DNA of 64,000 bases from Dehalococcoidia bacterium (GCA_963665775.2 CAXXTF010000002.1:288001-352000); one strand, 5' to 3'; counted from the first letter of the stretch, positions 24,686 to 60,215 are shown. The notes: generated from the letters alone by a model not told the origin. Numbers and translations: made by a program.

Positions 24686-24709
24686 GCACACTAAGCAGAC
24701 TTAGTGTGC
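24686..24709. other. Palindromic site S1 GCACACTAA-gcagac-TTAGTGTGC (putative recombination site)
   Basis: Perfect 9-bp IR with 6-bp spacer between convergent genes. Confidence 0.6.
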
Positions 24710-24784
24710 CGTGGGGTGCCGAAATTCCAGGCGTGTCTGGAGGGGGTTATGCCTCTCCCACAGGATTGAGCGAACTGCTCTTCC

Positions 24785-25570
24785 CTACGGGCGCTTTATC
24801 CCTGCCAGGGTGACGCCGCGGGTGTCAAAATCCTTGGCGTCCGACTCATGCTTGGAGCCGGAGAAGACATCGACCTCCGGGCCCCAGAGGATGTCCGTAA
24901 ATCCAACATGCTCAAGGACCCAACGCCACTCTGCTTCCAGCAGAGCACCGGCAATTCAGCCAGACCAAAGATCGATATCGTCCTTAGCGTCCTGAGGGAC
25001 CTCTTGGTGGACAACGATATCTGCGATCTGGAAACGGGCGCCGGACTTGAGGACGCGGTTGACCTCCTGCATGACCGCCACCTTGTCGGGGCAAAGGTTG
25101 ATGACGCCGTTGCTGATAACGACATCGATAGTCCCGTCGTCCGCGGGGAGCGCTTCGGCCAGACCAGGGCGGAAGTTGACGTTCGTCAGGCCCGCTTGTC
25201 GGGCGCTCTCGGCGGCCTTATCGAGCATGGCAGGGGTCATATCCACGGCGATCACCCGCCCGCTAGGTCCAACTTGGCGGGCGGCGATCAGTGTATCGAT
25301 GCCCGCGCCGCAGCCGATGTCGAGGACGGTCTCACCGGGGTGAAGTTCGCCCATGGAGAAGGGATTACCGGTGCCGGCGAAGGACTCGACCGTGGCGGGA
25401 GGAAGGGACGCGACGAGGGTGGGGTCGTAGCCGAGCATGCTAGCGAGGGGACGGCCCGTATGAAAGTGGAAGCCCTTCTCGGGTGTGAGGGCTACCTCGG
25501 CGTACTTATCGCTGATCTGAGACCGCAGCGCCTCAGCGTCGACACGTGCAGCCCGAACCTCATTGGCCAT
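24785..25570 (-). CDS. Arsenite methyltransferase-like selenoprotein (in-frame UGA at 24956-24958)
   Basis: SAM motif LDIGCGAG, SNGVINLCPDK; WSG-TGA-IAGAL aligns with ArsM WxGCIAGAL; the frame continues 56 codons; hairpin CTCTGCT-GGA-AGCAGAG follows the UGA. Confidence 0.88.
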
Positions 25571-25869
25571 GGCCAACTGCCTTGCTGGGTTTAACCTGGT
25601 GGGGTCTAAGCTTAGCACCGACGACCGATGGGATCAATCTTAAAGAGCCTGCGTGGGGACGGATTGCAGGCTCTGTCACTAGACGTCACGACCCACTATC
25701 GACAGACTCTGACTCAGGGGCGGCGGATATGGGCGAGGCGGCTACACGATGAAGTTATAATCTACCTTCGACGGGAGTGCGCTAAGGGTTCTCTCGCCGG
25801 CTACCATCCGAAGCAAGGAAGATCACCCGGCTAAGCGATTCCCGCTGGCCTCGGGGCGCTAAACTCCGT

Positions 25870-26131
25870 CTATTCAGACTGAGGATTGATCTCAGGAATG
25901 GGATTCGGCTCGACATGGAAGCTTGGCAGCCAATTTAGCCACGACGGGAAGTACCAATTGGTCTTCCCCAGCAGCTGCATGCTTGCCGGCACCAAGATTG
26001 AACGAACTATGGTGGCGTCTGCCAGGATCGCCACGCCGAGCCCGAAGCCCATCTGCTCGAACATTACGAGCTTTCCACTGGCGAACCCGCCAAACACGGC
26101 AACCATTATCAGAGCCGCGCCGGTGATGAGC
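25870..26131 (-). pseudogene. MMPL-family C-terminal fragment
   Basis: RLITGAALIMVAVFGGF...DATIVRSILVPASMQLLG..NWYFP. Confidence 0.8.
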
Positions 26132-26905
26132 CTACCCGGAGAGCGAGGCCTCGTCGCCGGAGACAGCATGAATGGTGCCGGCTTCGTCACGCACCAAGAG
26201 GCGGCCGCTGCTATCGATATCCTGCGCGATACCCTGTAGCGCCCCATGTCGACGGTGCACCACGACTCGGTTCCCAAGAGTATCGATCACCTCTCGCCAT
26301 CGCGCAGCGACATCGCCGCCCTGGACCCACTCCGCGTACCCCGCGTCTAGGCGCCGGAGCACCGCCAGAGCTGCGGATTCGGGATCGACGTACACTCCAG
26401 TCTCCGCCAGATGGCTCGTGGCGATATCATTGATTTCGGGGTGCCGGTCCAGGTCCAGCTTTAGGTTCAGCCCGATGCCAGCGACCATGGCAGTGGCACC
26501 AGACGGATCCGGCTGGCTCTCCACGAGGACGCCTCCCAGCTTCTTCCCTTCATGGTGCAGATCATTTGGCCACTTCACGGCTTCAAGGGCGCCAGTGAGG
26601 TCCTGGATCGCCCGGTGCGCTGCGAGCGTGGCGACCATGGTCAGCGCGGACACTTCGATCGCTGTGGAGGGCCGTAGGATCACCGATAGCAGGAGGGAGT
26701 CGCCCCTGTCCGAAACCCAGCGCCGGGCGAAGCGTCCACGGCCGTTGGATTGGAACATCGCTTGCACCGCCGTCCCATGCTCGGCTCCCTCGCCCACGAG
26801 CGCCCACGCGACATCCATCGTCGAGGTCACCTGGTCGTAGCCCTTAAGTGTTCGGCCGATGACGAGGGCGGGGTATGAACGTCTCCAGGCTGGTTCCGGA
26901 TCCAT
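26132..26905 (-). CDS. birA: Biotin-[acetyl-CoA-carboxylase] ligase (no HTH)
   Basis: QSNGRGRF, KWPND, KLGGVLVE, GIGLN. Confidence 0.9.
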   Translation of the reverse strand: MDPEPAWRRSYPALVIGRTLKGYDQVTSTMDVAWALVGEGAEHGTAVQAMFQSNGRGRFARRWVSDRGDSLLLSVILRPSTAIEVSALTMVATLAAHRAIQDLTGALEAVKWPNDLHHEGKKLGGVLVESQPDPSGATAMVAGIGLNLKLDLDRHPEINDIATSHLAETGVYVDPESAALAVLRRLDAGYAEWVQGGDVAARWREVIDTLGNRVVVHRRHGALQGIAQDIDSSGRLLVRDEAGTIHAVSGDEASLSG

Positions 26906-26913
26906 CGCGGAGC

Positions 26914-26942
26914 AGTTTATAGACCCTGACCCTGCGTGTCAA
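26914..26942 (-). promoter_or_regulatory. Leaderless sigma70-like promoter of birA
   Basis: TTGACA-17-TAAACT, 8 nt before the ATG. Confidence 0.6.
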
Positions 26943-27078
26943 ACCGGGGTTTGATTGTCAGCCTCCTCACCGGAGCCTGTCTCGACGTGCTCGAAGGTCG
27001 GGTCCGCTTGAGTTCTTGCGCTGAGGCGCATGGAGAGCGGAGGCTTCGATCTGGCACCGTTAAGAGAGGTCGGGGACG

Positions 27079-27125
27079 TGATGGGCTCTATTAAACGCTA
27101 CCACACGCTACGTTTGTGGAGCTAT
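27079..27125 (-). mobile_element. Diverged IS3-family right-end remnant
   Basis: TGATGGGCTCTATTAAACGCTACCACAC resembles the ends at 17052 and 34515. Confidence 0.55.
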
Positions 27126-27245
27126 GGCCGGCGAGCGCTGGTCCACGCGCACTTGAGAATAGAGGGCTGACAGCGAGTGCCGGGCGATTAGTGAGGGCAC
27201 CCTATCTCTGTGTGAGTCTAGCAGCGCTGTCCGCCACACGCTAGC

Positions 27246-27267
27246 AACACGATCGACACATAGTGTG
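27246..27267. other. Palindromic site S2 AACACGAT-cgacac-ATAGTGTG
   Basis: Same consensus as S1; spacer is the exact reverse complement of the S5 spacer. Confidence 0.55.
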
Positions 27268-27419
27268 TGTTCGCTGGGGTGCCTGCAACGTCTTGCGTGT
27301 GATCCGCTTGGGGGTCCGTCTCCTAGAGCTAAGTGCTCGGGCAATTAGCTGCGTCCCGATCCTGGAAACCGCTGCCGCTCGATATCGCTCGGATTATCCC
27401 GTGGTAGAATCGGGCCATT

Positions 27420-28724
27420 GTGGGAGACCGTGAGGAGATTCCCGTCCCCGCAACCGGGCAGCGCCATCTCGTCTTGGAGCCCCTGGGCACCCTGCGGCAT
27501 CGGGACTTCCGCCTGCTGTGGATGGGAACGCTGGCCTTAAGCAGCACCAACGTATTCCAGTTCTTCGCTATCGGCCTGCTTATACAAGAGCATTTCCCTC
27601 GCGTTCTGGGCCCCTCTTTCCCGGTGCTTTTGATACTGGGGGTCGTCGGCTTCATACGGGGCGCTGGTATGGTCATATTCACACTCCTGGGCGGTGTCCT
27701 CGCTGACCGTTACGACCGTCGAAACCTGGCCCTGATCACCCAGGGCGTCTCCGTTATCTTGATAGGGCTGTTCAGCCTCCTTCTTGCCCTGGGCTCGATT
27801 CAGCTGTGGCAGGTCCTATTACTGGTGTTTGCCACCTCCGCCGGCACTTCGTTCGGCCTGCCGGCCCGGCAAGCTCTATTGCCCCAGTTGGTGGAGCGGC
27901 GAGAGGTTCCGAGCGCGGTGGCCCTGTTCACGGCTGCCGTGCAGTCCTCCATTACCTACTCTTCCTTTCTCGCCGGCTGGTCTCTGGGAACTTTGGGCAT
28001 CGCCGCCACCTTCGCACTGAGCGGGGTGGGCAACGCCATCCTCTTCCTGGCCCTAATGTTCATGCGCCACAGGGGTGCAGGAGCGGCCGACTCCAGACAG
28101 CCGGGGATGCTTCTCCAGGTTCGCGAGGGGTTTCGCTACGGCCGCCGCAACCACACCGTCCTGGGCATCCTGATCGTGGTCTTCACGTTGAGCGCCGTCG
28201 GACTGTCGACGGTCGCCAACCTGACGCCCAACTGGATGTTTAGCGTCATGGACGTGAGCCCCACCACCTGGGGACTGCTGGCCACCATGTGGGGCGTCGG
28301 TAGCCTGGTTGCTGCTTACGGGATTTTGGCCTATCTTCGCCAATCGCGTCTCAGCGGACGGGTCTTCCTCGGCGCTTCTCTCTTCTTCTCCGTAATGCTC
28401 ATCGTCTGGGGCCTCAACCGCTCCGTTCTGGGATTGGGTGTGGTGCAGTTCACTATGGGCGGCAGCTACAGCGTCGTCTTGATCATAGGCGCCGCCATCA
28501 TCCAGACCCAGGTGCCCGATGAGATCCGGGGCCGGGTGATGTCCGTCTTCAACCTGGGCCAAGCCCTCTCGATGATCAACGGAATCACCGTGGGTGGCTT
28601 CGCTCAGGGAGTCGGAATTACCACGGCCTGGCCCCTCCTCGGAATCGTCCTCACGGTGGCCGTTATCGCTGGAGCCATCGCCTTGCCCCGCCTGCGCCAG
28701 GGCACTACCACAGGTCCCCCGTGA
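27420..28724 (+). CDS. MFS transporter (MFS_3/H+ antiporter-like)
   Basis: LRHRDFRLLW, GGVLADRYDRR, PARQALLP, RGRVMS; about 12 TM segments. Confidence 0.9.
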   Translation: MGDREEIPVPATGQRHLVLEPLGTLRHRDFRLLWMGTLALSSTNVFQFFAIGLLIQEHFPRVLGPSFPVLLILGVVGFIRGAGMVIFTLLGGVLADRYDRRNLALITQGVSVILIGLFSLLLALGSIQLWQVLLLVFATSAGTSFGLPARQALLPQLVERREVPSAVALFTAAVQSSITYSSFLAGWSLGTLGIAATFALSGVGNAILFLALMFMRHRGAGAADSRQPGMLLQVREGFRYGRRNHTVLGILIVVFTLSAVGLSTVANLTPNWMFSVMDVSPTTWGLLATMWGVGSLVAAYGILAYLRQSRLSGRVFLGASLFFSVMLIVWGLNRSVLGLGVVQFTMGGSYSVVLIIGAAIIQTQVPDEIRGRVMSVFNLGQALSMINGITVGGFAQGVGITTAWPLLGIVLTVAVIAGAIALPRLRQGTTTGPP

Positions 28725-28757
28725 CCGTGCCGAAGCTAAAGCGCCGTGACATGCGGT

Positions 28758-28961
28758 CTAGTGGCAAGCAAGAGCGGCCTCGGCCATATACCACGTCGTG
28801 TGCGAGAAGCGCTCGGGCTCCAGCTGGCAGATGGCGTAGGCACAGAAGACGCGGTCTCGTTCCAGACGAGGCAGGACCCGCGAGGCCTCGGTGAGCTGTC
28901 GGATGCGGTAGGTGACGTCGCCTTTGGTCGCCACCTCGGCAGGAGGCGCGTCATTCTCCAT
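28758..28961 (-). pseudogene. Truncated third copy of the GNAT-like gene
   Basis: N-terminus homologous to 38719 and 41384. Confidence 0.8.
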
Positions 28962-29101
28962 GCCGTCGATTGTAACTTAGCCGGTCGTCGAATGCGGCCC
29001 GGTGCGCCTTGGCCTACGGTTTTTCGGCCGAAGCATCACCGTGGCCGGTATACCTAGGTCTTGTAGGCTGCTCGCTTCTCTTAGCGCCCGAACGGTCGCA
29101 C

Positions 29102-34332: not shown

Positions 34333-34380
34333 GCAGCGATATTACTAGATCGAGGCGACGGACTACATTGAGGTGCGCGC

Positions 34381-34515
34381 GCACAGCGCTCTCGGCTACC
34401 GGCCGCCAGCACCGCAAGCGATCGTGCCATCGCCGGGCTCCACCGCGCCATCCCTGGAGACTACCGCGATGGCCACACTAACATATCGTGTGGTAGCTTA
34501 AAGGAGGGCAGGTCA
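34381..34515 (+). mobile_element. IS3-family (IS407-like) right-end remnant
   Basis: HSALGYRPPAPQ followed by ...GGGCAGGTCA. Confidence 0.8.
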
Positions 34516-34633
34516 GCAGGTTCTGCACTATGCGGATGTCGGCGCCTCGGTCCAGTAAGTGAGTGGCGAAGCTGTGGCGCAGGGTGTGGGTATGGACTCA
34601 CTTTCGTAGGGCCTTCCGCCCATACTTGCTCAC
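34516..34633 (-). pseudogene. XerC/D-type tyrosine recombinase catalytic fragment
   Basis: Manual translation [38 protein letters not shown]. Confidence 0.8.
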
Positions 34634-38390: not shown

Positions 38391-38718
38391 GGGTTGGCCC
38401 CGCTGTGCCGGTCTACGCGGGTAGAACGCGCTGGCCCACGGGTCAACCGCGCATGGTGTACAAGAGGGTGTGAGCAGTCAGGCCGCCTGCCTCTAGTGCC
38501 TGCCTCGACGCCGGCTAATACCCCACGCGGACCAAGGCAAGCCCAAGCGCAGATGTGAACGACACCGCCTTCGCGAATGGCGAGTTGTGCGACGGTCTTT
38601 CTCTGGGCTGGGGGGCGCCGCCGGACTGGTGATTCGGCTGTAGTCCTATCGGGTACGCACTCTGTTTAGGGCTCCCGCTCCCCCGCATCTACCGGCTGCA
38701 TCAGGTACAATCAGCGGC

Positions 38719-41339
38719 ATGGAGAACGACCCGCCTCCTGCCGAGGTAGTGACCAAAGACGGTGTCACCTATCGCATCCGACGCCTGACAGAGGTCTCGC
38801 AGATTCTGCCACGCCTGGAGAAGGACCGCGCCTTCTGTGCCTACGCCATCTGCCAATTGGAGCCTGAGCGCTTCCCGCACACGAGATGGTACGTCGCGGA
38901 AGGCGAAGGTGGTGAGGCCCTCGTGATGCATGCCACCGGCAGCTTGAGGGGCAGCCTATACGGCTTTGGGGCGGACCTCTTCTGCGTGGGCCACGCTCAG
39001 GCACTCGATGCCATAGTGTCGCTTCATCCGGGCCCGCGCTATGTGTCGCGCCTGTGGGCTCAGGTCGAGCATGGCCCAATACTCAAGCGCCATTACTTCG
39101 TCTTGAGGGGCTCTCCCCTGTTATTCTTACAGTTTAGCCCGAATCCACCGAAGGACGGCCTTGGGGACAGTCCTTGAAGAAGCCATCGGGTGCTCCTCTG
39201 AATCTGGGATAATGGTTTTGGAACAGAAACCAGCCCGGAAACAAGGAGCACCCAATAGATGCTACCACAGAACAAACCCGACCGTATCCGCATCCTCTTT
39301 GACGACCATCGCCTGGTGGCCAATGCCGGCCTGCTCCTGCCAGCCACCCTAGCCCGGCACCTGGGCCTGCGGGAACTCGTCGACCATCACCTTGACCTCG
39401 GCGGAGCGCCGGGACGGGCGAACACTGGGGACAAGATGCTGACGCTGGTCGCTTCCGCGCTGGCAGGCGGCGACTGCATCGACGACGCCGATGCGCTGCG
39501 CGCTGGTGGGACGGTCGGTGTTCTAGGCTGCGTGGTCAAGGCGCCATCCACCCTGGGGACCTTCCTGCGCAGCTTTCGGTGGGGGCATGTCCGTCAACTC
39601 GACCGCGTGAGCCGCCAGTTGTTGGCCCGGGCCTGGGCCGCTGGGGCCGGACCCGGCGACTCGCCCCTGACCATCGACCTGGACTCGACCATCTGCGAGA
39701 CCTATGGACTGGCCAAGGAGGGAGCGCGCCACCACGGCTATACCGGCGCCCGCGGCTATCACCCGCTGCTGGCCATTGCCGCCGGCACCGGCGAGGTGCT
39801 GATGTCCCGGCTGCGCGAGGGCCGGGCCAACACCGCCCGTGGCGCCGCCCACTTCCTGCGTGAGACGGTGGGGCGGGTGCGCTACGGCGGGGCCAGGGGA
39901 CAACTCACGGTGCGGGCCGACAGCGGCTTCTACGCCCACACTGTCGTTGCCGCCTGCCGGGAAATGGATGTCCGCTTCTCTATCACCATCCGCCAGCGCG
40001 CCAGCCTGCGGGACCTGATCGAGGCGATACCAGAGGAGGACTGGACTCCCATTCCCTACTGGATGGACGGCGCCGCCGATGTCGCCGAGACGACTTACAC
40101 CCCGTTCCAGACCAAGCCGGACGCCGCGCCGGTGCGGCTCATTGTCCGGCGGGTGAAGCCGACGCCCGGTTCCCAGCTCGCCTTCTTCGCCAGATACAGC
40201 TATCACGCCTTCATCACCGACCGCGATGGGGAGACGCTGGAACTGGAGGCTGATCATCGCCGCCACGCCGAGGTCGAGAACGCCATACGCGACCTCAAGT
40301 ACGGCGTCGGGCTGAACCACATGCCGTCGGGGCGCTTCGCCGCCAACGGCGCCTGGCTGGCGGTCCAGGTGATGGCGCATAACCTGGCCCGCTGGACAGC
40401 CCGCATCGGCCTGGGTCAGCAGATCGTGACCACCAAGACCCTCAGGCGGCGGGTCTTCGCTCTGGTGGGACGGATCACCCGCTCGGCGCGCCGCCTCACT
40501 TTGCATCTCCCCCGGCGCTGGCCTTGGGAAACCCAGTTCAGTCGCGCCTTGGCCCGGCTGCAAGCCATTCCATTCCCGGCCTGACGGCCAGCCTGCAACT
40601 GACCCAACGTCCCCGCAATCTCGCGCCACCCCGGTCGCGAGAGTCCCCTGCTGCGTATCCTCTCGCCATCCCGCGCATCGCAACTCCCGCATAGGGCCTT
40701 AGGGGCCCTGTGCGGCGACTGAAGACCGTCCGCCGGCCTCCCATCTACCCCAAGACCCCAGGCCATCTCCCCTGTAGCTCCCTCACCCACCCCCTTCCGC
40801 TGTCCTCACGCCGTCCATCCGTGTCCTTCGGTGGATTCGGGTTTAGTACTAGCCCCGACCAGAGCCCAGATGGCAATCCGGCCAGGCGGCTTTCCGGTGC
40901 TGATATTGGCGAAATCAACCGTCTGCGTCGTGCAGCAGGCTACTTTGGGCTATTTCGCGGAGAGCTTATCAATCGGGGCCTCTGGTTCGGTTTGTTTGAG
41001 GACGGCCACCTGGTCGCGCTCGCTGGCACTGAGGTCATGTCGCCGACGTATGGAATCTCGCTGGGTGGCCGCACGCTGGTCCACCCTAATTACAGGGGTC
41101 GCCGCTACGCCGACCTAGTGGCAACAGCTGCGAGAAGCGAAGCAGACAGAAGAATCCGTATTCAGGTGGCTACAATCGACCCTGAGAACACTCCAGCCCC
41201 ACAGCGGAGAAGGCGCCTCAGTGAAGCAGCTGGGCAGGTGCTCGACACCTCGGCCCTCCGTCGCGACCCAGTGGGCCTGGCCAGCCTCATCCGGCGGGTG
41301 CTGGCACGGCGAAGGGCGCGTAACGGCGCATATCGGTAA
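38719..41339 (+). pseudogene. GNAT-like acetyltransferase interrupted by IS1380
   Basis: Paralog of 41384; the frame resumes after the IS (LVHPNYRGRRYA). Confidence 0.85.
39138..40841 (+). mobile_element. IS1380-family element (transposase 39259-40584)
   Basis: 19-bp IRs CCCGAATCCACCGAAGGAC; TTTAG duplicated on both sides; IDLDST, RADSGF. Confidence 0.95.
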
Positions 41340-41383
41340 GCCTAAAACGCCCAGGCTCATCTACCAGGTGTACAATCGACGGC

Positions 41384-42349
41384 ATGGAGAATGACCCGCC
41401 TCCTACTGAGGTGGTGAGCAAAGACGGCGTTACCTACCGCATCTGGCGTCTGACTGAGGTCTCGCAGATTCTGCCTCGACTGGAGAAGGACCGCGCCTTC
41501 TGTGCCTACGCCATCTGCCAATTGGAGCCTGAGCGCTTCCCGCACACGAGATGGTACGTCGCGGAAGGCGAAGGTGGTGAGGCCCTGGTGATGCATGCCA
41601 CCGGCAGCTTGAGGGGCAGCCTATACGGCTTTGGGGCCGACCTCTTCTGCATGGGCGAATCGGCCGCTCTGGACGCCATGCTGTCCCTTCATCCGGGTCA
41701 ACGCTATCTGTCGCGCCTGTGGGCGCAGGTCGAGCACGGACCTGTACTCAAGCGGCATCTTCGATTGGTAGAGGATGGCCCCAAGCTTCTAATACGAGAT
41801 CGCAGCGAAGAGGTCGGGGCGATTGATCCTCCGGCAGTGCGACTGACCGGCGCCGATATCGGGGAGATCAATCGACTTTTTAGATCGGGTGGAGGCTCCT
41901 TGGGTCTCTATAGGCGTGAACTAATAGACCGCGGCCACTGGTATGGATGGGTTGAAGACGGGCGTCTTGTTGCCTTCCTGTCCTACGAGACCGTCTCGCC
42001 GAGCTGCGGGATTGCCATTCACGGCAGGGGCCTAACCCACCCCGAGTACCGGGGAAGGCACTATATTAGAGATCTCTTGGCCACCGCCAGGGGTAGAGAT
42101 TCCTCAGCAAAGTACCCTATGCGTGTGTTCACGGTTGACCCCGCAAATGCCGCTATGATGCGCCGGCGGAGCCGTCCGCGGCCGGGGCTGATTACTGAAG
42201 ATGTTGGGGAGGTCCTGGAGACGAGGGCCTACCGTCGCGACCCGGTGGGCCTGGTCAGCCTCATCCGGCGCGTCCTGGCACGACGAAAAGCGCGGAAGAG
42301 CGAGACTAGCGATGTCGCCGCAGTGGGGCATCGGGGCGGCCCAGATTAG
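41384..42349 (+). CDS. GNAT-family acetyltransferase
   Basis: LTHPEYRGRHY acetyl-CoA-binding motif. Confidence 0.75.
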   Translation: MENDPPPTEVVSKDGVTYRIWRLTEVSQILPRLEKDRAFCAYAICQLEPERFPHTRWYVAEGEGGEALVMHATGSLRGSLYGFGADLFCMGESAALDAMLSLHPGQRYLSRLWAQVEHGPVLKRHLRLVEDGPKLLIRDRSEEVGAIDPPAVRLTGADIGEINRLFRSGGGSLGLYRRELIDRGHWYGWVEDGRLVAFLSYETVSPSCGIAIHGRGLTHPEYRGRHYIRDLLATARGRDSSAKYPMRVFTVDPANAAMMRRRSRPRPGLITEDVGEVLETRAYRRDPVGLVSLIRRVLARRKARKSETSDVAAVGHRGGPD

Positions 42350-50356: not shown

Positions 50357-50445
50357 TCCTCACCTCGCTGTCAACCTTCATCTATCTACTATGTACAGGA
50401 GAAAGGCGCACTTACTGGACGAAGGATATCCTTATCGCGCCTTAG

Positions 50446-52149
50446 CCCGAATCCACCGAAGGACACGGATGGACGGCGTGAGGACAGCGGAAGGGGGTGG
50501 GTGAGGGAGCTACAGGGGAGATGGCCTGGGGTCTTGGGGTAGATGGGAGGCCGGCGGACGGTCTTCAGTCGCCGCACAGGGCCCCTAAGGCCCTATGCGG
50601 GAGTTGCGATGCGCGGGATGGCGAGAGGATACGCAGCAGGGGACTCTCGCGACCGGGGTGGCGCGAGATTGCGGGGACGTTGGGTCAGTTGCAGGCTGGC
50701 CGTCAGGCCGGGAATGGAATGGCTTGCAGCCGGGCCAAGGCGCGACTGAACTGGGTTTCCCAAGGCCAGCGCCGGGGGAGATGCAAAGTGAGGCGGCGCG
50801 CCGAGCGGGTGATCCGTCCCACCAGAGCGAAGACCCGCCGCCTGAGGGTCTTGGTGGTCACGATCTGCTGACCCAGGCCGATGCGGGCTGTCCAGCGGGC
50901 CAGGTTATGCGCCATCACCTGGCCCGCCAGCCAGGCGCCGTTGGCGGCGAAGCGCCCCGACGGCATGTGGTTCAGCCCGACGCCGTACTTGAGGTCGCGT
51001 ATGGCGTTCTCGACCTCGGCGTGGCGGCGATGATCGGCCTCCAGTTCCAGCGTCTCCCCATCGCGGTCGGTGATGAAGGCGTGATAGCTGTATCTGGCGA
51101 AGAGGGCGAGCTGGGAACCGGGCGTCGGCTTCACCCGCCGGACAATGAGCCGCACCGGCGCGGCGTCCGGCTTGGTCTGGAACGGGGTGTAAGTCGTCTC
51201 GGCGACATCGGCGGCGCCGTCCATCCAGTAGGGAATGGGAGTCCAGTCCTCCTCTGGTATCGCCTCGATCAGGTCCCGCAGGCTGGCGCGCTGGCGGATG
51301 GTGATAGAGAAGCGGACATCCATTTCCCGGCAGGCGGCAACGACAGTGTGGGCGTAGAAGCCGCTGTCGGCCCGCACCGTGAGTTGTCCCCTGGCCCCGC
51401 CGTAGCGCACCCGCCCCACCGTCTCACGCAGGAAGTGGGCGGCGCCACGGGCGGTGTTGGCCCGGCCCTCGCGCAGCCGGGACATCAGCACCTCGCCGGT
51501 GCCGGCGGCAATGGCCAGCAGCGGGTGATAGCCGCGGGCGCCGGTATAGCCGTGGTGGCGCGCTCCCTCCTTGGCCAGTCCATAGGTCTCGCAGATGGTC
51601 GAGTCCAGGTCGATGGTCAGGGGCGAGTCGCCGGGTCCGGCCCCAGCGGCCCAGGCCCGGGCCAACAACTGGCGGCTCACGCGGTCGAGTTGACGGACAT
51701 GCCCCCACCGGAAGCTGCGCAGGAAGGTCCCCAGGGTGGATGGCGCCTTGACCACGCAGCCTAGAACACCGACCGTCCCACCAGCGCGCAGCGCATCGGC
51801 GTCGTCGATGCAGTCGCCGCCTGCCAGCGCGGAAGCGACCAGCGTCAGCATCTTGTCCCCAGTGTTCGCCCGTCCCGGCGCTCCGCCGAGGTCAAGGTGA
51901 TGGTCGACGAGTTCCCGCAGGCCCAGGTGCCGGGCTAGGGTGGCTGGCAGGAGCAGGCCGGCATTGGCCACCAGGCGATGGTCGTCAAAGAGGATGCGGA
52001 TACGGTCGGGTTTGTTCTGTGGCAGCATCTATTGGGTGCTCCTTGTTTCCGGGCTGGTTTCTGTTCCAAAACCATTATCCCAGATTCAGAGGAGCACCCG
52101 ATGGCTTCTTCAAGGACTGTCCCCAAGGCCGTCCTTCGGTGGATTCGGG
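50446..52149 (-). mobile_element. IS1380-family element, second copy (transposase 50703-52028)
   Basis: Near-identical to 39138-40841; flanks CTTAG/CTAAG do not match. Confidence 0.95.
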
Positions 52150-52420
52150 CTAAGCCTAGCCAAACCGTATCAACTCCCCCGCCGAAGATCAAGTATTGTA
52201 TTCGCGTCGGCCCATCCCAAGCCCTCTCGTACACCTTCTGCTACTGCGTCTGGGTAACGCGGAGGCAGGTTGCGTAAAGAAGCTGCCGAAGTAAGAAGTA
52301 AGATGATAACTGACCGCGTTTCGCTCGTCCTCCCCGTATCTGAGCCACAGCGCACAGGGCGAGATGCCTCCTAAGCAGCATCTTTGATCTACGGGCTGCC
52401 GCGACATCCGTGGCTGCCAA

Positions 52421-52440
52421 ACACTATCAGGTCATGGTGT
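52421..52440. other. Palindromic site S6 ACACTAT-caggtc-ATGGTGT
   Basis: One mismatch to the consensus; overlaps the stop codon of 52432-52690. Confidence 0.5.
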
Positions 52441-53614: not shown

Positions 53615-53661
53615 TGGAGGGCCCGGTGGGATTCGAACCCACGACTCTCGGATTAAAAGTC
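53615..53661 (-). pseudogene. tRNA-Lys(TTT) 3' half (att core)
   Basis: Reverse strand GACTTTTAATCCGAGAGTCGTGGGTTCGAATCCCACCGGGCCCTCCA; no 5' half. Confidence 0.88.
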
Positions 53662-53670
53662 ACGCTCTCG

Positions 53671-53872: not shown

Positions 53873-53889
53873 CGCTAGATTCAGAATCT

Positions 53890-54906
53890 TCAGGCTAATC
53901 GGGCGTTCCCAGAAATCAGACTACCCTCCCCCAGCCTCCCTTTCAATCGATCTGCCGGGCTGAACAGGACGTGCGCCTGCGCCGCTTTTTCAGCGTCGTA
54001 GGTCGCCGTGTAGCGCCGTAGCATCGCCGGCGTGGAGTGGCCAAGAAGCGCCTGTACGTCAATCTCCCTCGCTTGCTGCTCGATGGCCCAGGTGGCGAAG
54101 GTGTGGCGGAAGCGATGCGGATGTACGTGATGTAGAGAGGCCTTCTGGTCCAGCCTCTGGAAGATGGTCCGCAGGGCAGTCCGGCACAGTTGTCCGCCCC
54201 GGCAGGTCAGAAATAGCGGCCCGGGGCCACCGCTTCGGAATCGTCCCAGGTAGTGCTGGATGGCCCGGCGCGCCTCATCCCCAAACCGGACCACCCGCTG
54301 TTTGTTCCCCTTCCCGTGACTGACGTGCATGCGCCCACGCTCAAAGTCGACCTCATCCAGCAGAAGGTTACACAACTCGGTCGCCCGGAGGCCGGTGTCC
54401 AGTAGGACAAGGATGAGGGCCCGGTCTCTGCCCCCTTTGTGGGTCGAGGGATCGCAGTAGGCGAGAAGGCGCAGGACATCCTCCTGGGAGAAGGGCCGAA
54501 TCACCTTCTGAGGCACCTTGATGTTCTTCACCTTGGAGAACGGGTTCGTGGCGACGTAATCGTGACGCAGGAGCCAGGAGAAGAATGCCCTGGTCTCCCG
54601 CTGCCTCCGCCACTGGGTCATGGCGGAAACGCCAGTATCGGCCACGCACCCCAGGAACTGGTAGACGTGGGCAGCAGTGAAGGAGGCTGGATCCTCGGGT
54701 AGTCTCTTCTGCCCGATGACATTCGTGAAAATACCAAGGGTCTCCCGATAAGACCGGATGGTCTCCTCCGACTTCCCCTTGATGCGACAGGAGGTGAGGT
54801 AGAGTTCGATGACCTCCGTCAGGTCCCGCTGGTGGCTGCCGTTGCCGTCGCCGTTTCTCTCTATGCTCTCCCCCACACTTAGATAAGAAGGCCGTGTTGC
54901 ATTCAT
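53890..54906 (-). CDS. XerC/D-like tyrosine recombinase, intact catalytic set
   Basis: TGLRATE, GKGNK, HRFRH, LLGH, RRY; no obvious IntI-specific insertion. Confidence 0.92.
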   Translation of the reverse strand: MNATRPSYLSVGESIERNGDGNGSHQRDLTEVIELYLTSCRIKGKSEETIRSYRETLGIFTNVIGQKRLPEDPASFTAAHVYQFLGCVADTGVSAMTQWRRQRETRAFFSWLLRHDYVATNPFSKVKNIKVPQKVIRPFSQEDVLRLLAYCDPSTHKGGRDRALILVLLDTGLRATELCNLLLDEVDFERGRMHVSHGKGNKQRVVRFGDEARRAIQHYLGRFRSGGPGPLFLTCRGGQLCRTALRTIFQRLDQKASLHHVHPHRFRHTFATWAIEQQAREIDVQALLGHSTPAMLRRYTATYDAEKAAQAHVLFSPADRLKGRLGEGSLISGNARLA

Positions 54907-55123
54907 CACTCTGCTGCGGCGGCAAGTCAAGCGCAGGAGCGAATCGGGCGGATTGGCCCAATTCAGGCTGCCGGAGAGGGGTCGGCACACACTAGAACGA
55001 GCGAGGTGCGCACACAGGCGCGCTACCTTTTCAGCTTCGGATGTATTTTGGCCCCCCACAATCGCTCACTGCCCTTTAGCCGGATGTATGATTGTGCCAC
55101 CTATCTGTCCAAAGGAGGCTGCC

Positions 55124-55264: not shown

Positions 55265-55383
55265 AGCCTTCCTCTAGCCGCCACACGACCCCAATCTAAT
55301 CCTGCCGGTCGTCACGGCCCATTCAGACAGTGTCGCGCTGGCTCTCCAGGCTTACGATAGCGACGGAGTATTACCCCCCACCC

Positions 55384-55412
55384 TTGACAATGCACAGCTA
55401 TATGCTTATACT
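55384..55412 (+). promoter_or_regulatory. Leaderless sigma70 promoter
   Basis: TTGACA-17-TATACT, ATG 6 nt downstream. Confidence 0.75.
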
Positions 55413-55418
55413 CGCCAC

Positions 55419-55778
55419 ATGCGAAGAAAACCGGGCGCCCTAATACCCCTTGAAATATCTATCCTAGGGGCAGGCATTGACCTGAAACTAGGTGGAGTGG
55501 AAGAGTTCCACGGGTTCGGTATCGCCAAGGAGATTAGGGATCGCAAGGGCGCGCGTTTGCTGACAGCCCATGGGACGCTGTATAGGGCCTTGGGCCGCAT
55601 GGAGAAGGCGGGCCTACTGGTCAGCCAATGGGAGGACCCGAACTTGGCCACCAGCGAGAACCGCCCGCGGCGTCGCATGTACCGCGTCACAGCGGCTGGT
55701 GAAGGGGCGCTCTCGAAGGCTCAGTCCGCGAGGCAGCGGCAGACGCTGAAGCTAGAAAGGGGACCGGTCACATCATGA
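55419..55778 (+). CDS. PadR-family transcriptional regulator
   Basis: HGFGI, GTLYRALGRME, RRMYRVT. Confidence 0.9.
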   Translation: MRRKPGALIPLEISILGAGIDLKLGGVEEFHGFGIAKEIRDRKGARLLTAHGTLYRALGRMEKAGLLVSQWEDPNLATSENRPRRRMYRVTAAGEGALSKAQSARQRQTLKLERGPVTS

Positions 55779-56407
55779 AGTCATTCACGAGCGCCTGGTC
55801 TATGAGACTCGTCCGTTGGTGGCTAAACCTCTACACCGCCGGTCTGCCTTCCGAGGTCAAATGTGAGCGACTGGCCGAGATCGAGTATGACGTCTGGGAG
55901 CATGAACGCAATGGTGAGGCAGAGGGTCAGCGCTCTGACGTGATACAGGGCGAGATATTCTTCCGGTTCCTAACGGGCATACCCGCCGACCTGCTGTGGC
56001 GGCGGGAGCAGGCAGGAGCCGAGAGACGCTCCAAAGAGGGCAACATGGTCTTAAAACAGAGTGGAAACGCGACAACGTCGATGGGTTTCATCCTCGCGGG
56101 AGTGCTTCTGGCGGCAATATATATGATCGGCGGCGTGTCGGTTTCGCTCGGATGGGCAAATAATGGTGACATACCAAGATTCTGGTGGGCGTTCATAGGC
56201 TTGCTACCAGGCGCCATGATTCTGGTGGGACTCTGGGCGAGTATGCGGTCACCACTGCTCGGCGGCATCCTGATAACGGTCGGAGCGGTGCCCCTGGCCA
56301 TTATGTTTTACTGGACCATAATCCTACCCCTCCTGGCCATGACGGTAGTGATATTTGGCGTCGTCAGAGCCATTGAGTTCGCCAGAGAACGTCGTACCCC
56401 ATCATAA
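55775..56407 (+). CDS. PadR-associated membrane protein
   Basis: Coupled to PadR; four C-terminal TMs. Confidence 0.75.
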   Translation: MKSFTSAWSMRLVRWWLNLYTAGLPSEVKCERLAEIEYDVWEHERNGEAEGQRSDVIQGEIFFRFLTGIPADLLWRREQAGAERRSKEGNMVLKQSGNATTSMGFILAGVLLAAIYMIGGVSVSLGWANNGDIPRFWWAFIGLLPGAMILVGLWASMRSPLLGGILITVGAVPLAIMFYWTIILPLLAMTVVIFGVVRAIEFARERRTPS

Positions 56408-56436
56408 CCTCGTCAGGAGGTCTCGCGATTAAAGGA

Positions 56437-57915
56437 ATGACCGCGGCACTCACGTGCGTCCTGCTGCTGGCGCTCGGCACGTTCGCCACCGCCTGCGGTG
56501 ACAGTGATGAACTTACACTTAAGGAGTACTTCCAGCGGGTTGAGGAGATACTTGGTGACTCCGATAACCGGGCCGAGGCGCTGGAAGGCGCGTTCCCCGG
56601 AGCCTTCGAGGAGCCCGCCGCAACTAGCGACTTTTTCAGGGCATCAGCAACCATCTTCGGCGAGGCCAACGATAAGATGGACGACATCGATGCGCCGACC
56701 GAGGTTCAAGAGGCCCATAACAAATTCGTGGCCGCCACGGTAGGTTTACTGGATGTCACAGAAAGCATCGCCGACGGGCTCGCAGATGTGGGTTTAGCCT
56801 CCGAGTTTGGAGGGCTGCTCGAGCTCAAACAGCCGGAGTTTGACGCGGCTAACGAACGGATGGAAGCCGCTTGCCGAGCGCTGCAGTCAATCGCTGACGA
56901 TAACGGCATCGCCATCGACCTGGGGAGCGTCGATCGGGACTGTGATGCCCTGCAAGTCGACGCCTCAGGAGCACCTGTCCCACTAGAGACCCCAGCGCCC
57001 CCGGTAGTCAGGCGAACACCGCCGCCTCAGCTCCTCATCGTTGGCAACCAGATACAGAACACTTATGGAGAGCGTGTGGTGTTGCGTGGGGTGGCCATTG
57101 ACCAGCCAACTCTCCTGGCTAATTCCCCGAGGGTGGGGCACTTCGCCGCTGAAGACTACCGTGTCCTGGCTGATGACTGGGGCGCCAACATTATCAGGGT
57201 ACCAGTTTATCCGCGTTCCTGGACATCGGACCCGCTGTACATGGAGAAGTATCTTGATCCTCTTGTCCAGTGGGGAGGGGAGTCCGGCATCTACATCTTC
57301 CTGGGCTGGCGCGCCCACGGCAACCCAGTGACTGGCCAGGAGGAGAAGCCTTATCTCAGTCCCGACCTGGAGCTAGCAGAGTCGGCCCTCACGGCCATGG
57401 CCGAACGATATCGGGACAAACCGTGGGTGCTCTACGGCACATTCAACGAGCCGACCTATATCTCTTGGTCAGAATGGAGGCCAGTAGCGGAACGGCTGGT
57501 TGATACCGTCCACGAGGTCAACCCCGAGGTTGTGGTCTTTGTCTCCGGTGTTGATTGGGGCTACGACCTCAAAGGGGCCATCAAAGACCCCGTACGCCGA
57601 AATAACATCATCTATGAGACGCATCCGTACCCCGGCAAGGGCGAAGGATGGAAGGGTGTACTGGACGAACTCAGAAAGACCACCCCTGTCTTCCTCGGCG
57701 AATGGGGATTTGAACCTGGCGCCGAAGATAGAAACCTTCGCGGAACCGCCGAGAAGTACGGAGACCCCTTGCTCCAATATGCAAAGGAACGCAACATCGG
57801 CTGGACGGCCTGGCAGTGGCGCCTCCGCTATTCCGAGCTTGGCATGCTGGAGTCCTGGGATGGCTACAAACCGACCGAATGGGGGCTCTTTATCAAAGAA
57901 GGCTTGTCTCAGTAG
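56437..57915 (+). CDS. Lipoprotein fused to a glycoside hydrolase family 5 domain
   Basis: ATAC lipobox; GANIIRVP, FNEP (acid/base), HPY, LGEWG (nucleophile), WTAW. Confidence 0.85.
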   Translation: MTAALTCVLLLALGTFATACGDSDELTLKEYFQRVEEILGDSDNRAEALEGAFPGAFEEPAATSDFFRASATIFGEANDKMDDIDAPTEVQEAHNKFVAATVGLLDVTESIADGLADVGLASEFGGLLELKQPEFDAANERMEAACRALQSIADDNGIAIDLGSVDRDCDALQVDASGAPVPLETPAPPVVRRTPPPQLLIVGNQIQNTYGERVVLRGVAIDQPTLLANSPRVGHFAAEDYRVLADDWGANIIRVPVYPRSWTSDPLYMEKYLDPLVQWGGESGIYIFLGWRAHGNPVTGQEEKPYLSPDLELAESALTAMAERYRDKPWVLYGTFNEPTYISWSEWRPVAERLVDTVHEVNPEVVVFVSGVDWGYDLKGAIKDPVRRNNIIYETHPYPGKGEGWKGVLDELRKTTPVFLGEWGFEPGAEDRNLRGTAEKYGDPLLQYAKERNIGWTAWQWRLRYSELGMLESWDGYKPTEWGLFIKEGLSQ

Positions 57916-57948
57916 AAACCTACAAAGGGTTGTAAATGGCCATCAAAC

Positions 57949-57972
57949 GCGCACTATGGCTGAATAGTGATC
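57949..57972. other. Palindromic site S3 GCGCACTAT-ggctga-ATAGTGATC
   Basis: Between the GH5 stop and the PIN gene. Confidence 0.55.
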
Positions 57973-58019
57973 CGAGATGTGAATCGAGCTAAAGCTGGCT
58001 CCTGCTATATACTTCCGGC

Positions 58020-58475
58020 ATGATGTCGGAAGCCGAACACCGCTTGCGGATCGCCATCGACACCAATGTTCTCGTCGCGGCCTTAACTAACTCGGGCGGG
58101 GCCGCAGCGCGGGTCGTCGACGGCTGGGTGGAAGATCGGCTGGATGTCGTCTCCTCAGAGGCCACCCTCCGCGAAGCCAAACTCATTCTTGATTCGCAGT
58201 GGCTGAGACGGATCGTACCGCGCGGCAGGATAGACGCGCTTCTCGAGATGCTCTGGACGCGGTCGATACGGGTGAGTGGAGATCCAATCGAGGGGCTACC
58301 CCTCAAAGACGAAGGCGACCGGAAACTCGTGGAGGCGGCTATACAGGGCAGCGCCTCTTATCTTATTACGGCTGATGCAGAGCTGTTGAAGTATCGAGGC
58401 TACCGGGCGGCAGAGTTCATTAAGCCAACCGAGTTCCTGAAGCTATTCCAATTAGACGTGGCGCGTGAACCTTGA
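58020..58475 (+). CDS. PIN-domain protein (putative toxin)
   Basis: IDTNVLVAA, DEGD, LITADAELL. Confidence 0.88.
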   Translation: MMSEAEHRLRIAIDTNVLVAALTNSGGAAARVVDGWVEDRLDVVSSEATLREAKLILDSQWLRRIVPRGRIDALLEMLWTRSIRVSGDPIEGLPLKDEGDRKLVEAAIQGSASYLITADAELLKYRGYRAAEFIKPTEFLKLFQLDVAREP

Positions 58476-59506
58476 GCAAGGTATCTCGGTTCGAGCGGCT
58501 AAAGAGTAGCCTCGGCAGCCTCCTGCTATCGGCCCTCGCCTTCGTGGCGCTTGTGGCTACAGCCTGCGGTAGTAACGGCACCGTCTCGACCCCGACCCCG
58601 TCGCTCAGCGCCACGCCCGCCACACCGGCGCAGGGCACTTGGCGGGAGTTGGCGCCGATGCCGACGCCGCGGTCTGAGGTGGCGGTCGCTGAGCTGGACG
58701 GTCTGCTCTATGTCGTCGGCGGATTAAACCAGGTTGGTGCTCCGACCGCCACGGTAGAAGTCTACGATCCGGCTACGGACACATGGATGGCGGTAATGCT
58801 ACTCCCGCGCCCTCGTCACCACGCGGCTGCAGCTGGATTTGGCGGCAGGCTCTACGTGATCGGTGGGTTCGAGCAGAGCTTTAGCGACCCCCAGGCGACG
58901 CTGTTCGTGTACGATCCGGCTTCCGACTTCTGGAATGAGAAGGCTCCTATGCCGACCGCCCGAGCCGCCCTCGTCGCCGCCCAGATCAACGGCCGGATCT
59001 ACGCTATCGGTGGCGTCGCTGTTTCCGGAGGCGCTAACTCGGATGCCGTCGAGGTCTACGACCCGGCTTCGGACACATGGATGGCGGCAGCGCCACTCCC
59101 GACGGCGCGGGATCACCTAGCAGTGGGCGTTGTGGATGGCAAGATCTATGTAGTAGGGGGCCGCGCCTCACTCGACTTCAACCGCAACCTAGGCCAGAAC
59201 GAGGAGTACGACCCGACGACGGATCTCTGGATCGAAAGAACGCCGCTTCCGACTGCCCGCAGCGGGATAGCAGCAGCGGTCGTGGACGGGCGCCTATATG
59301 TGGTCGGCGGTGAGGGCTCCCAGGGAACTTTTGACGAGAACGAGGCGTACGATCCAGCTACTGACTCATGGGAGGCGCTATCGCCGCTCCCGACGGCACG
59401 GCACGGGATGGGGGCGACCACTGTCGACGGCACCATGTACGTGCCAGGCGGCGGGCCCACGGCCGGCCTCTCGGTTACTGGTGCGAATGAGGCGTTCACG
59501 CCGTAA
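58472..59506 (+). CDS. Kelch-repeat lipoprotein
   Basis: Six YVxGG...YDP..W repeats; ATAC lipobox. Confidence 0.92.
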   Translation: MSKVSRFERLKSSLGSLLLSALAFVALVATACGSNGTVSTPTPSLSATPATPAQGTWRELAPMPTPRSEVAVAELDGLLYVVGGLNQVGAPTATVEVYDPATDTWMAVMLLPRPRHHAAAAGFGGRLYVIGGFEQSFSDPQATLFVYDPASDFWNEKAPMPTARAALVAAQINGRIYAIGGVAVSGGANSDAVEVYDPASDTWMAAAPLPTARDHLAVGVVDGKIYVVGGRASLDFNRNLGQNEEYDPTTDLWIERTPLPTARSGIAAAVVDGRLYVVGGEGSQGTFDENEAYDPATDSWEALSPLPTARHGMGATTVDGTMYVPGGGPTAGLSVTGANEAFTP

Positions 59507-59516
59507 GCCTACGGTC

Positions 59517-59538
59517 TACACTAAGTTCCCATCGTGTT
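59517..59538. other. Palindromic site S4 TACACTAA-gttccc-ATCGTGTT
   Basis: 10 bp after the Kelch stop. Confidence 0.55.
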
Positions 59539-59609
59539 TGCCGCGGTAAGTGATATTGACGTTGTGAAGATTCGCCTGTTTAATTCATAAGGAGGAAGGA
59601 GGTCTCGTC

Positions 59610-59903
59610 ATGTTCGCGCAGTCAGTGAGAGTGCAGATTCAGCCTGGTAAGCTGGACGACGCGGTTCGCATCTTCACCGAATCCGTGCTGCCTGCTGCCA
59701 GGCAGCAACCGGGCTTCAAGGATGGCTACTTTCTGGTCGACCGGGAGAACAACAGAGCGATAGGATTAGCCCTCTACGAGACCAAGGCCGACGTAGAGGC
59801 GCTCGTGAACAGCGGCTTCTACCAGGAGAACGTTGCCAAGTTCGCCGCCGTCTTCGCGGGGCCGCCCGAGCGCGAGGTGTACGAGGTCGCGGCTCAGGCA
59901 TAG
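59610..59903 (+). CDS. ABM (antibiotic biosynthesis monooxygenase-like) protein
   Basis: QPGKLD, QPGF, EVYEV; strong RBS. Confidence 0.85.
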   Translation: MFAQSVRVQIQPGKLDDAVRIFTESVLPAARQQPGFKDGYFLVDRENNRAIGLALYETKADVEALVNSGFYQENVAKFAAVFAGPPEREVYEVAAQA

Positions 59904-59940
59904 GTCATGAGCCACGTGCGGAGGCAGGATCCGCGAGACT

Positions 59941-60098
59941 CAGGCGATCGAGAACGGTGTCCCGATCTACGTCTGAGGGGGCTGCTCGACTGCCCGTGGG
60001 GTGGTCGAGCCGACCTCCAGGGAAAGAACGCTAAGTTGACCAACCCTCAAGAGTCTGCCGACCTGGTCGCCGCGGCCGACCGGGTGGTTTCAACCTAG
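59941..60098 (+). pseudogene. DsrE-like selenoprotein C-terminal fragment (UxxC)
   Basis: ENGVPIYV-TGA-GGCSTARGV, then a 1-nt frameshift to DLQGKNAK...ADRVVST; long hairpin after the UGA. Confidence 0.75.
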
Positions 60099-60191
60099 GC
60101 CGCGGCCGAGCGAGGGGCCGCGCGCCTCGACTTTGCGGTTTTTTTGCGACCACTATTTGCAGGCGATCTAGCGCATAAGGGAATGCCTGCC

Positions 60192-60215
60192 CAACACTAT
60201 GTGTCGATAGTGTGC
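60192..60215. other. Palindromic site S5 CAACACTAT-gtgtcg-ATAGTGTGC
   Basis: After the DsrE fragment, before the xanthine dehydrogenase gene. Confidence 0.6.

Follow-up and report, generated by a model that had tools for sequence, protein, structure and literature searches.

To our knowledge, integrons and dif modules are the only well-described site-specific systems that shuffle small gene modules, and both are known mainly from Proteobacteria and in the context of antibiotic resistance. An engineered counterpart is recombinase-mediated cassette exchange (RMCE) with heterospecific lox or FRT sites, where sites with the same arms and different spacers do not cross-react and a flanked segment can be swapped between pairs of sites. 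Here we describe a family of short palindromic sites in a 64,000-nucleotide stretch of a Dehalococcoidia genome (G000:C2:288001-352000, hereafter the window; the genome spans 2.35 Mb in two contigs, C1 and C2). From the sequence patterns set out below, these sites are probably the recombination junctions of a system in which gene modules are exchanged slot by slot. Coordinates given without a contig name are counted from the first letter of the window.

For the dif modules of Acinetobacter plasmids, one published account (PMC13141974) reports recombination detected between pdif sites with identical or near-identical 6-bp spacers, and proposes that single modules are exchanged through cointegrate formation and resolution. 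The sites described here resemble dif modules in being short and double-stranded, in having a 6-bp spacer, and in bounding small modules that have their own promoter. They differ in setting, as pdif sites are found on Rep_3 plasmids of Acinetobacter, whereas the elements here are chromosomal and belong to Dehalococcoidia.

The window contains six sites with a 20-bp core, named here by the class of the spacer.

24688 to 24707, minus strand: core site of class GTCTGC, reading ACACTAA GTCTGC TTAGTGT on that strand; arm-matrix score 23.8
27247 to 27266, minus strand: core site of class GTGTCG; arm-matrix score 24.7
52421 to 52440, minus strand: core site of class GACCTG (CAGGTC on the plus strand); arm-matrix score 22.8
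57951 to 57970, plus strand: core site of class GGCTGA with two arm mismatches; arm-matrix score 17.8
59518 to 59537, plus strand: core site of class GTTCCC, 11 bp past the stop codon of a Kelch-repeat gene; arm-matrix score 23.0
60194 to 60213, plus strand: core site of class GTGTCG, both arms perfect, 290 bp downstream of a stop codon; arm-matrix score 27.1

All six had been listed in a preliminary description of the window, at positions that differ from these by 0 to 2 bp, and the spacers given there (GTCTGC, GTGTCG and GACCTG on the minus strand; GGCTGA, GTTCCC and GTGTCG on the plus strand) were read correctly. The exact polar pattern ACACTAWNNNNNNWTMGTGT (ACACTAW-N6-WTMGTGT) matches four of the six sites and is absent from 100 dinucleotide-preserving shuffles of the window. 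When the pattern is relaxed to ACACTA-N8-TAGTGT with at most two mismatches, all six sites are recovered in the window together with one further match at 7862, against a mean of 0.59 and a maximum of 3 in the shuffles; this extra match likely arose by chance.

Across the genome, 30 sites are found at one mismatch or fewer. Searches with an arm matrix, which was built from the arms alone and is thus blind to the spacer, returned 54 matches at a score of at least 16 (1 in the reversed genome, used as control) and 66 matches at a score of at least 14 (6 in the control), from which we estimate that the genome holds about 60 sites. Although some 80% of the genome is coding, 61 of the 66 matches lie outside crude gene calls, in tandem (31), convergent (15) or divergent (15) gene contexts. 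They form clusters at C1:767-782 kb, C2:218-259 kb, C2:312-354 kb (the window), C2:918-920 kb, C2:970-1020 kb and C2:1435-1441 kb. Information content is limited to exactly 20 bp, made up of two 7-bp inverted arms and a 6-bp centre, and the first spacer position is nearly always G, which gives each site a polarity. The arms are near-symmetric (ACACTAW, with the right arm often ACACGAW; ACACTAW / ACACKAW). This is unlike the 28-bp pdif site with its distinct 11-bp XerC and XerD arms, and no base outside the 20 bp is conserved here. It is also unlike the attC sites of integrons, which are 57-141 bp long (R''-L''...L'-R') and fold as single strands, whereas the present sites are 20-bp duplex palindromes. 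An extended palindrome of the attC kind was not found around them, flank complementarity being 0.18-0.39 where about 0.26 is expected from base composition.

There are 26 distinct spacers among the 66 matches, and 12 recurring classes account for 52 of these, CGACAC/GTGTCG alone contributing 10 matches. Among the 121 pairs of sites with the same spacer class, 18 share exactly one 40-bp flank and 3 share both flanks, all three of the latter inside a methylase gene; not one of the 2024 different-class pairs shares a flank. Gapped alignment gave nine flank families and no pair sharing both flanks, at a score that none of 2000 random pairs attained. Flanks thus reassort among same-spacer sites only (21/121 against 0/2024), which is indirect, comparative evidence of a resemblance to dif modules. 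The preliminary description had supposed that the sites recombine with little spacer homology, in the manner of integrons or Tn916, and this part of it is not supported: the confinement of flank sharing to identical spacers, together with the fixed order of classes described below, is as a requirement for spacer identity predicts, and such identity may well be required.

Within the GTGTCG class, which has three left flank families and one right family, we see the combinations L2+R1 (C2:977217), L2 with another right flank (C1:683709) and another left flank with R1 (C1:313251); therefore both sides reassort around one centre. In a further trio of sites, each arm goes with its own flank and the switch is located between the arms:

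C2:980367: flank L1, arm ACACTAA, spacer GTCCGC, arm ATAGCCT, flank R1
C2:353958: flank L1, arm ACACTAA, spacer GTCTGC, arm ATAGTGT, flank R2
C2:247526: flank L3, arm CCACTAT, spacer GTCTGC, arm ATAGCCT, flank R1

Comparison of the genome with itself identified a 1048-bp hydrolase module present twice at 96.7% identity (C2:246503-247544 and C2:981415-980368), with sites at both ends, and flanked in both places by GTGTGG and GTCTGC/GTCCGC. In this it behaves like a segment swapped by RMCE. RMCE is, however, a laboratory design with two or three spacer variants, whereas here there is a natural scaffold with around ten classes in conserved order, whose incompatibility is suggested by the flank comparison. 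The duplication C1:782060-785035 = C2:218803-221778 begins at a site, and C1:776554-778331 = C2:196617-194822 ends at one. Nucleotide matches between loci from metagenome-assembled genomes (MAGs) have 159 ends, 9 of which are no more than 5 bp from a site, compared with 0-2 when site positions are shifted. A check proposed in the preliminary description, whether homology breaks inside the sites, is therefore positive both within this genome and between MAGs.

Reading towards the recombinase gene introduced below, the classes follow the order GAGTTA, GGCTGA, (GTTCCC), GTGTCG, GACTTC, GTCTGC, GTGTGG, CAGGTC, TGCGCC, CTTGAC. In this genome's arrays and 16 outside loci, 53 oriented class pairs are concordant with this order and 13 discordant, against a mean of 26 and a maximum of 37 concordant pairs in 500 shuffles, a contrast that the shared descent of the arrays, discussed below, makes too favourable. 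Such a fixed order across genera is unlike dif modules, as is polarity: pdif sites, which bound C and D modules, alternate in orientation, whereas sites here stand in same-polarity runs. By the spacer G, array C2:241-254 kb reads +,+,+,-,-,-,-,- and array C2:973-981 kb is + throughout. The genes within one given slot nevertheless vary between arrays:

slot CTTGAC to GGCGCA: an unknown 334-aa protein, or a metallo-beta-lactamase-fold protein
slot GGCGCA to GACCTG: an alpha/beta hydrolase, a CoA-transferase or an unknown protein
slot GTGTGG to GTCTGC: a beta-lactamase-like protein or an alpha/beta hydrolase
slot GTCTGC to GACTTC: a CoA-transferase, or pirin plus glyoxalase
slot GACTTC to GTGTCG: an unknown 245-aa protein or a thiolase

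Modules measure about 0.5-7.5 kb. They usually hold one to three genes, which can lie on either strand, and the intergenic gaps in the slots measure 50-350 bp. PADLOC gave no convincing defence match for 12 cargo proteins.

Two arrays begin with a gene for a 312-aa Xer-like tyrosine recombinase, P0001 (C1:766482-767420) and P0002 (C2:240060-240998). Both genes point away from their array, and in both the start codon is preceded at 39 bp by the first site, which belongs to class CTTGAC; a truncated third copy (C2:60835-60969) also has its first site 39 bp upstream. P0001 has a Pfam Phage_integrase domain (3.7e-19) and, picked out by eye, the motifs RRRS, GKGGK, HILRH, LDHS and VYLRR, which we take to be catalytic. 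Core sites of tyrosine recombinases in general have inverted arms that bind the enzyme around a crossover region of 6-8 bp and adjoin an intact tyrosine recombinase gene, and the 7-6-7 layout beside P0001 agrees with this. P0001 falls well below the NCBIfam cut-offs for XerD (106 bits against 330), XerC (99 against 335), the integron integrase TIGR02249 (49.7 against 265) and NF011946 (31 against 435). Its nearest solved relative is XerD (E 1e-13), and its match to IntI4 in the PDB covers only the N-terminal half (E 6e-7). By these scores, P0001 is neither IntI, a tyrosine recombinase marked by an additional domain of its own, nor XerC/D. The gene is followed on its 3' side, in the same direction, by c2 (401 aa), c3 (413 aa) and a large serine recombinase of 538 aa, whose domains are Resolvase, Recombinase and Zn_ribbon_recom. 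The serine recombinase is linked in 19 of 26 loci, and c2 and c3 stand between the two recombinases in many loci, for example at L064:9502-11945 (G000 C2:237502-239945). For c2 and c3, neither Pfam nor PADLOC gave a match, and their look-alikes in the Atlas are hypothetical proteins, partly from phages. A dedicated recombinase gene beside the first site, with a large serine recombinase nearby, is a further departure from dif modules. The layout is integron-like, in that the first site lies in front of the recombinase gene, which points away from it, and the variable genes are confined to the side of that site; integrase-less arrays elsewhere in the genome, as in the window, recall those of integrons (CALINs). 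It is unlike integrons in the low score of P0001 under integron-integrase models, in having site classes that are positional and not cassette-specific, and in having genes on both strands with their own upstream regions, where integron cassettes are mostly promoterless, face one way and use a common promoter. Overall, the system resembles dif modules in spacer, partners and promoters, and integrons in layout, yet by these comparisons it fails the defining tests of both.

The same arrangement recurs outside this genome. The exact polar pattern was found in 11 of 41 relatives, and a reversed control pattern in none. In a set of 65 genomes of the order, sites occur in 32 of the 42 genomes of one family (f1), in 12 of the 13 of another (f6) and in none of the 9 of families f2-f5. 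The classes GTCTGC, GTGTGG, GTTCCC, GACTTC, GGCGCA and GGCTGA recur in other genomes, and identical 20-mers extend to other genera and to a second family within the order. A P0001-like gene (E <=1e-60) is present in 13 of the 65 genomes; 11 of these 13 have at least three sites, compared with 7 of the 52 without. In 24 MAG loci labelled Dehalococcoidia or Chloroflexota, with recombinases at 67-79% identity, we count 42 sites in 173 kb upstream of the gene and 6 in 200 kb downstream; in 80 metagenome contigs with a P0001-like gene, 52 sites in 207 kb upstream and 5 in 196 kb downstream. Pooled (n=104), this gives 94 sites upstream and 11 downstream, where reversed-sequence controls give 0-1. 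The first site is held close to the recombinase start in 8 of the 24 MAG loci and lies within about 120 bp of it in 16 of the 56 metagenome loci with enough upstream DNA. The class of this proximal site varies between loci (CTTGAC, TGCAAT, CGCGCC, TGCGCC, CAGGTC). Upstream genes are almost all unique to their locus, while the downstream side is conserved: c2, c3, the serine recombinase and then core genes such as relA/spoT. One 1.08-kb module is common to loci L035 and L042 at 95.6% identity, and terminates in a TGCAAT site. In metagenomes the recombinase family comprises more than 120 protein clusters at about 75% identity. The arrays are linked to a dedicated, non-IntI recombinase.

Starting from what is established, namely the sites, their classes and order, the mosaic flanks and the linkage to one recombinase family, the proposed system would work as follows. 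Its platform would consist of the 312-aa Xer-like recombinase gene, preceded at 39-105 bp by the first site, with the unknown genes c2 and c3 and the large serine recombinase behind it. A recombinase dimer, supplied in our reading of the linkage by the P0001 family, would bind the two 7-bp inverted arms, cut the site and exchange strands across the 6-bp central region. About 10-12 mutually incompatible centre classes would stand in fixed order and orientation along the element, and only sites of the same class would recombine. A single crossover between two copies of the element would fuse them into a cointegrate, and a second crossover at another class would resolve it with the intervening modules swapped; we infer this route of formation and resolution for the exchange as a whole. 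Each slot could in this way take different one- to three-gene modules with their own promoter while the scaffold is left undisturbed, and the serine recombinase would presumably move the entire element. The core of the preliminary reading, junctions of a non-IntI gene-module system with short double-stranded core sites of the tyrosine-recombinase type, is strengthened by the breakpoints in the sites and by the array-linked recombinase.

A broader reading, which is possible and which we hold only tentatively, is that this is a natural platform for multi-slot cassette exchange, with one recombinase, common arms and some ten incompatible 6-bp addresses in fixed order, through which Dehalococcoidia trade modules slot by slot across genera. 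It might then represent a third, independently evolved logic of gene capture, next to those of integrons and dif modules, carried by an element that a serine recombinase moves. In a literature search that reached few subscription journals and no supplements, we found no such system described in Chloroflexota, and no description of some ten ordered spacer classes combined with a dedicated recombinase and a large serine recombinase. The hosts are uncultured Dehalococcoidia of sediments and soils, which would have a recombinase family, a site architecture and ordered spacer 'addresses' of their own. Such a system would account for the renewal of accessory enzymes in small genomes, among them hydrolases, CoA-transferases, oxidoreductases and transporters. 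If the incompatibility of spacers is true, the classes would also offer a ready family of orthogonal recombination sites for one enzyme.

Several observations weigh against the proposed system and should be set beside the evidence above. Seven of the 52 genomes without a detected P0001-like gene carry at least three sites, at MAG completeness of 69-96%. Thirteen class pairs are discordant, and because the arrays share descent, the order statistic makes them look more independent, and itself more significant, than is warranted. One duplication end, C1:776554, lies 155 bp away from its site, no site is present at the far end of the C2:355531 duplication, and of 18 pairs with a shared flank only 12 have an identical arm next to it. 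In the window, one-sided flank sharing is seen for only two of the six sites (27247 and 57951), the other four having no informative partner, and the homology of a CoA-transferase paralogue stops at 24617, 71 bp short of the 24688 site. Finally, the array is present as assembled contigs in six runs of two studies, and the contigs examined (three runs, from both studies; a fourth run examined had a small share of the sequence) keep the reference arrangement across it, with no alternative junction at a site among the joints listed. These contigs span sites in the reference arrangement and break only at the genome's own duplicated modules, and they are silent on rare recombinants.

The enzyme itself invites the first alternative, that the sites are real and are acted on by host XerC/XerD, by Xer-like paralogues of 337-389 aa or by the large serine recombinase, with P0001 a passenger or regulator. 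The seven site-bearing genomes without a P0001-like gene would be explained in this way, as would the Xer-like paralogue at C2:1438444 with a GAGTTA site 95 bp upstream, the linkage of the serine recombinase to most loci, and the lack of a P0001-type gene near the arrays of the window, the nearest being 47 kb before its start. We nonetheless regard it as unlikely. The close spacing of the first site to the P0001 start (39 bp here), seen again in both locus sets, and the enrichment of sites on the upstream side only, both speak for P0001, and near-symmetric 7-mer arms are unlike the two distinct arms bound by XerC and XerD. Identity at a central dinucleotide is all that serine recombinases need, and the att sites of the large ones are about 40-50 bp long; conservation over 20 bp and classes defined by the whole spacer fit that rule poorly. 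Of the Xer-like paralogues, the 389-aa protein encoded in the window at 53890 had been put forward in the preliminary description as a candidate enzyme. We reject it: it is 26% identical to P0001, and its family is not linked to sites, with 4 in 276 kb over 17 loci against 42 in 173 kb upstream of the array-linked family.

A second alternative, which follows the preliminary description, is an integron-like system, in which each cassette would bring its own site and a spacer-tolerant recombinase would excise single circles and insert them beside the integrase. The one-sided layout, with the recombinase gene facing the first site, agrees with this, cassette-borne sites would also produce one-sided flank sharing with the same site sequence, and the class of the integrase-proximal site does differ between loci. 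We consider it quite unlikely, however, given that one spacer class, GTGTCG, goes with several unrelated flanks on both sides, that class order is fixed across genomes, and that both copies of the duplicated 1048-bp module are bounded by the same pair of different classes. Genes in both orientations, a recombinase that is not IntI and the missing attC-like palindrome point the same way.

Very improbable, lastly, is that the sites are operators of a transcription factor controlling an accessory regulon, or RNA hairpins or terminators, with the flank patterns a by-product of duplication: the 20-mers are palindromic and intergenic, some lie 50-150 bp upstream of gene starts (for example 57951, 59518 and 27247) and a PadR-family regulator is encoded at 55419-55778, but 15 of 61 sites lie between convergent genes, with no depletion relative to the genome (17% of intergenic gaps), identity drops from 95-100% to unrelated exactly at sites, spacers form discrete classes in fixed order, sites are linked to one side of a recombinase gene, and five of the six window sites fold no better as RNA than shuffled sequence (z-scores -0.42 to +0.93; only 24688, with 10-bp arms, reaches -2.53), with no terminator-like match at any site and a tRNA as the sole Rfam match in the window.

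Read as junctions of a slot-wise exchange system, the window sites are, by their spacers, pieces of integrase-less arrays that still follow the class order. On the minus strand these are GTGTCG (27247), a decayed AACTTC (25744) and GTCTGC (24688), on the plus strand GGCTGA, GTTCCC and GTGTCG, and CAGGTC (52421) stands alone. The other features concerned are as follows.

24708 to 27246, no strand: slot from GTCTGC to GTGTCG, with three genes by Pfam
24956 to 25618, minus strand: methyltransferase gene (Pfam), inside this slot
25744 to 25763, minus strand: decayed site, reading AGATTAT AACTTC ATCGTGT on that strand; arm-matrix score 14.1
25870 to 26277, minus strand: MMPL fragment (Pfam), inside this slot
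26132 to 26905, minus strand: biotin-protein ligase gene (Pfam), inside this slot
53890 to 55059, minus strand: 389-aa Xer-like tyrosine recombinase gene (Pfam/NCBIfam), inside the segment 52441-57950
57971 to 59517, plus strand: two-gene module, encoding a PIN-domain protein (58020-58475) and a Kelch-repeat protein (58472-59506), both by Pfam
59538 to 60193, plus strand: single-gene module, encoding a 97-aa antibiotic biosynthesis monooxygenase-like (ABM) protein (59610-59903)

The decayed site occupies the place expected for GACTTC, between the GTGTCG and GTCTGC sites, and fits the canonical order; at its score level, about 6 of the 66 matches are expected by chance. The 24688 site lies between convergent CoA-transferase and methyltransferase genes, and flank comparison gave no flank in common with any other site of the genome. 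The 27247 site lies between the divergent genes for biotin ligase and an MFS transporter. It has one flank only in common with the GTGTCG site C1:814592, and the blastn match begins at 27249. In other arrays, the GTCTGC/GTGTCG pair encloses a CoA-transferase, pirin/glyoxalase, thiolase or unknown gene. For homologues of the window methyltransferase gene, taken from five other genomes, no site is present nearer than about 1.5 kb, suggesting that this gene may be resident DNA and not cargo.

In other genomes, no class is as widespread near the recombinase as CAGGTC, that of the 52421 site (seen in 12 of 24 genome loci and in 8 metagenome matches). The 57951 site stands 35 bp after the stop codon of a GH5 cellulase gene and before the start of the PIN gene, and from the site onward it matches G058:C76 and G058:C134 at 88-92% identity, with a different left neighbour there. 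Genomes of genus g3 have Kelch homologues followed by a GGCAGA site and then a GTTCCC site, and the 20-mer class of the 59518 site (GTTCCC) is also present in G017, G048 and G022. The ABM assignment stands at 22.9 bits in Pfam, just below the curated cut-off of 23.1. The order GGCTGA-GTTCCC-GTGTCG in the window is that of arrays C2:973-981 kb and C2:1019-1020 kb.

The placement of the sites relative to genes had been described as mostly close to stop codons, with one site between convergent genes. The convergent position of 24688 stands, and 57951 and 59518 do follow closely after stops, but 60194 is not near one and 27247 has no credible stop codon close by. The overlap of 52421 with a stop codon is also seen, but the open reading frame (ORF) in question (85 aa) has no family match and was dropped by the crude gene caller.

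Further features of the genome touch the sites or their cargo. GTGTCG sites at C2:218802 and C2:250106, in direct orientation, bracket 31 kb in which a complete platform (methylase, primase-like gene, serine recombinase, c3, c2, tyrosine recombinase) stands together with its array. Each of the two is followed by a GAGTTA site, immediately at 250106 and beyond an intervening GGCTGA site at 218802, and the layout resembles that expected from integration of a circular element at a GTGTCG site. Genes with ParB_N and N6/N4 DNA-methylase domains occur in four copies (C2:231306-234964, 258944-260221, 966238-970127, 983824-985173), and at least two of them (C2:232550-234964 and C2:966238-968844) adjoin a primase-like protein of 804-868 aa. 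Each has an internal, well-scoring CCGGCA site some 60-120 bp from its 3' end, with several homology ends 13-47 bp away. The 673-aa CoA-transferase family III gene at 22593-24614 has a 92% paralogue at C2:442907-445271, the homology ending 3 bp past the stop codon, beside an insertion sequence (IS) copy; five CoA-transferase paralogues lie in or near arrays.

The variable region of the window starts at a tRNA gene (8654-8726) with an adjacent integrase. A 5-kb segment (8680-13635), which starts inside the tRNA, encodes a 463-aa tyrosine integrase (8807-10198, minus strand) and has a 99.4% duplicate at C1:846897-851842. Together, the tRNA and this segment look like the tRNA-side end of an integrated island. 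The region is densely populated with IS copies. Two inverted 1.71-kb IS copies with a 441-aa DDE_Tnp_1_4 transposase lie at 39134-40846 (plus strand) and 50439-52154 (minus strand). The family has about 18 copies over both contigs at about 99.5% identity, and IS activity has therefore been recent. IS ends were rejected as a source of the motif: the 1.7-kb copies do not contain it, and 52421 is 267 bp past an IS end. A repeat family of about 10 copies at 76-89% identity (28775-28987, 38703-39100, 41341-41763) covers the 5' part of ORFs of 319-321 aa that have no Pfam match (e.g. 41384-42349). A 163-bp repeat at 34354-34518, of which the genome has about 17 copies (91-92% identity), is possibly a MITE-like element.

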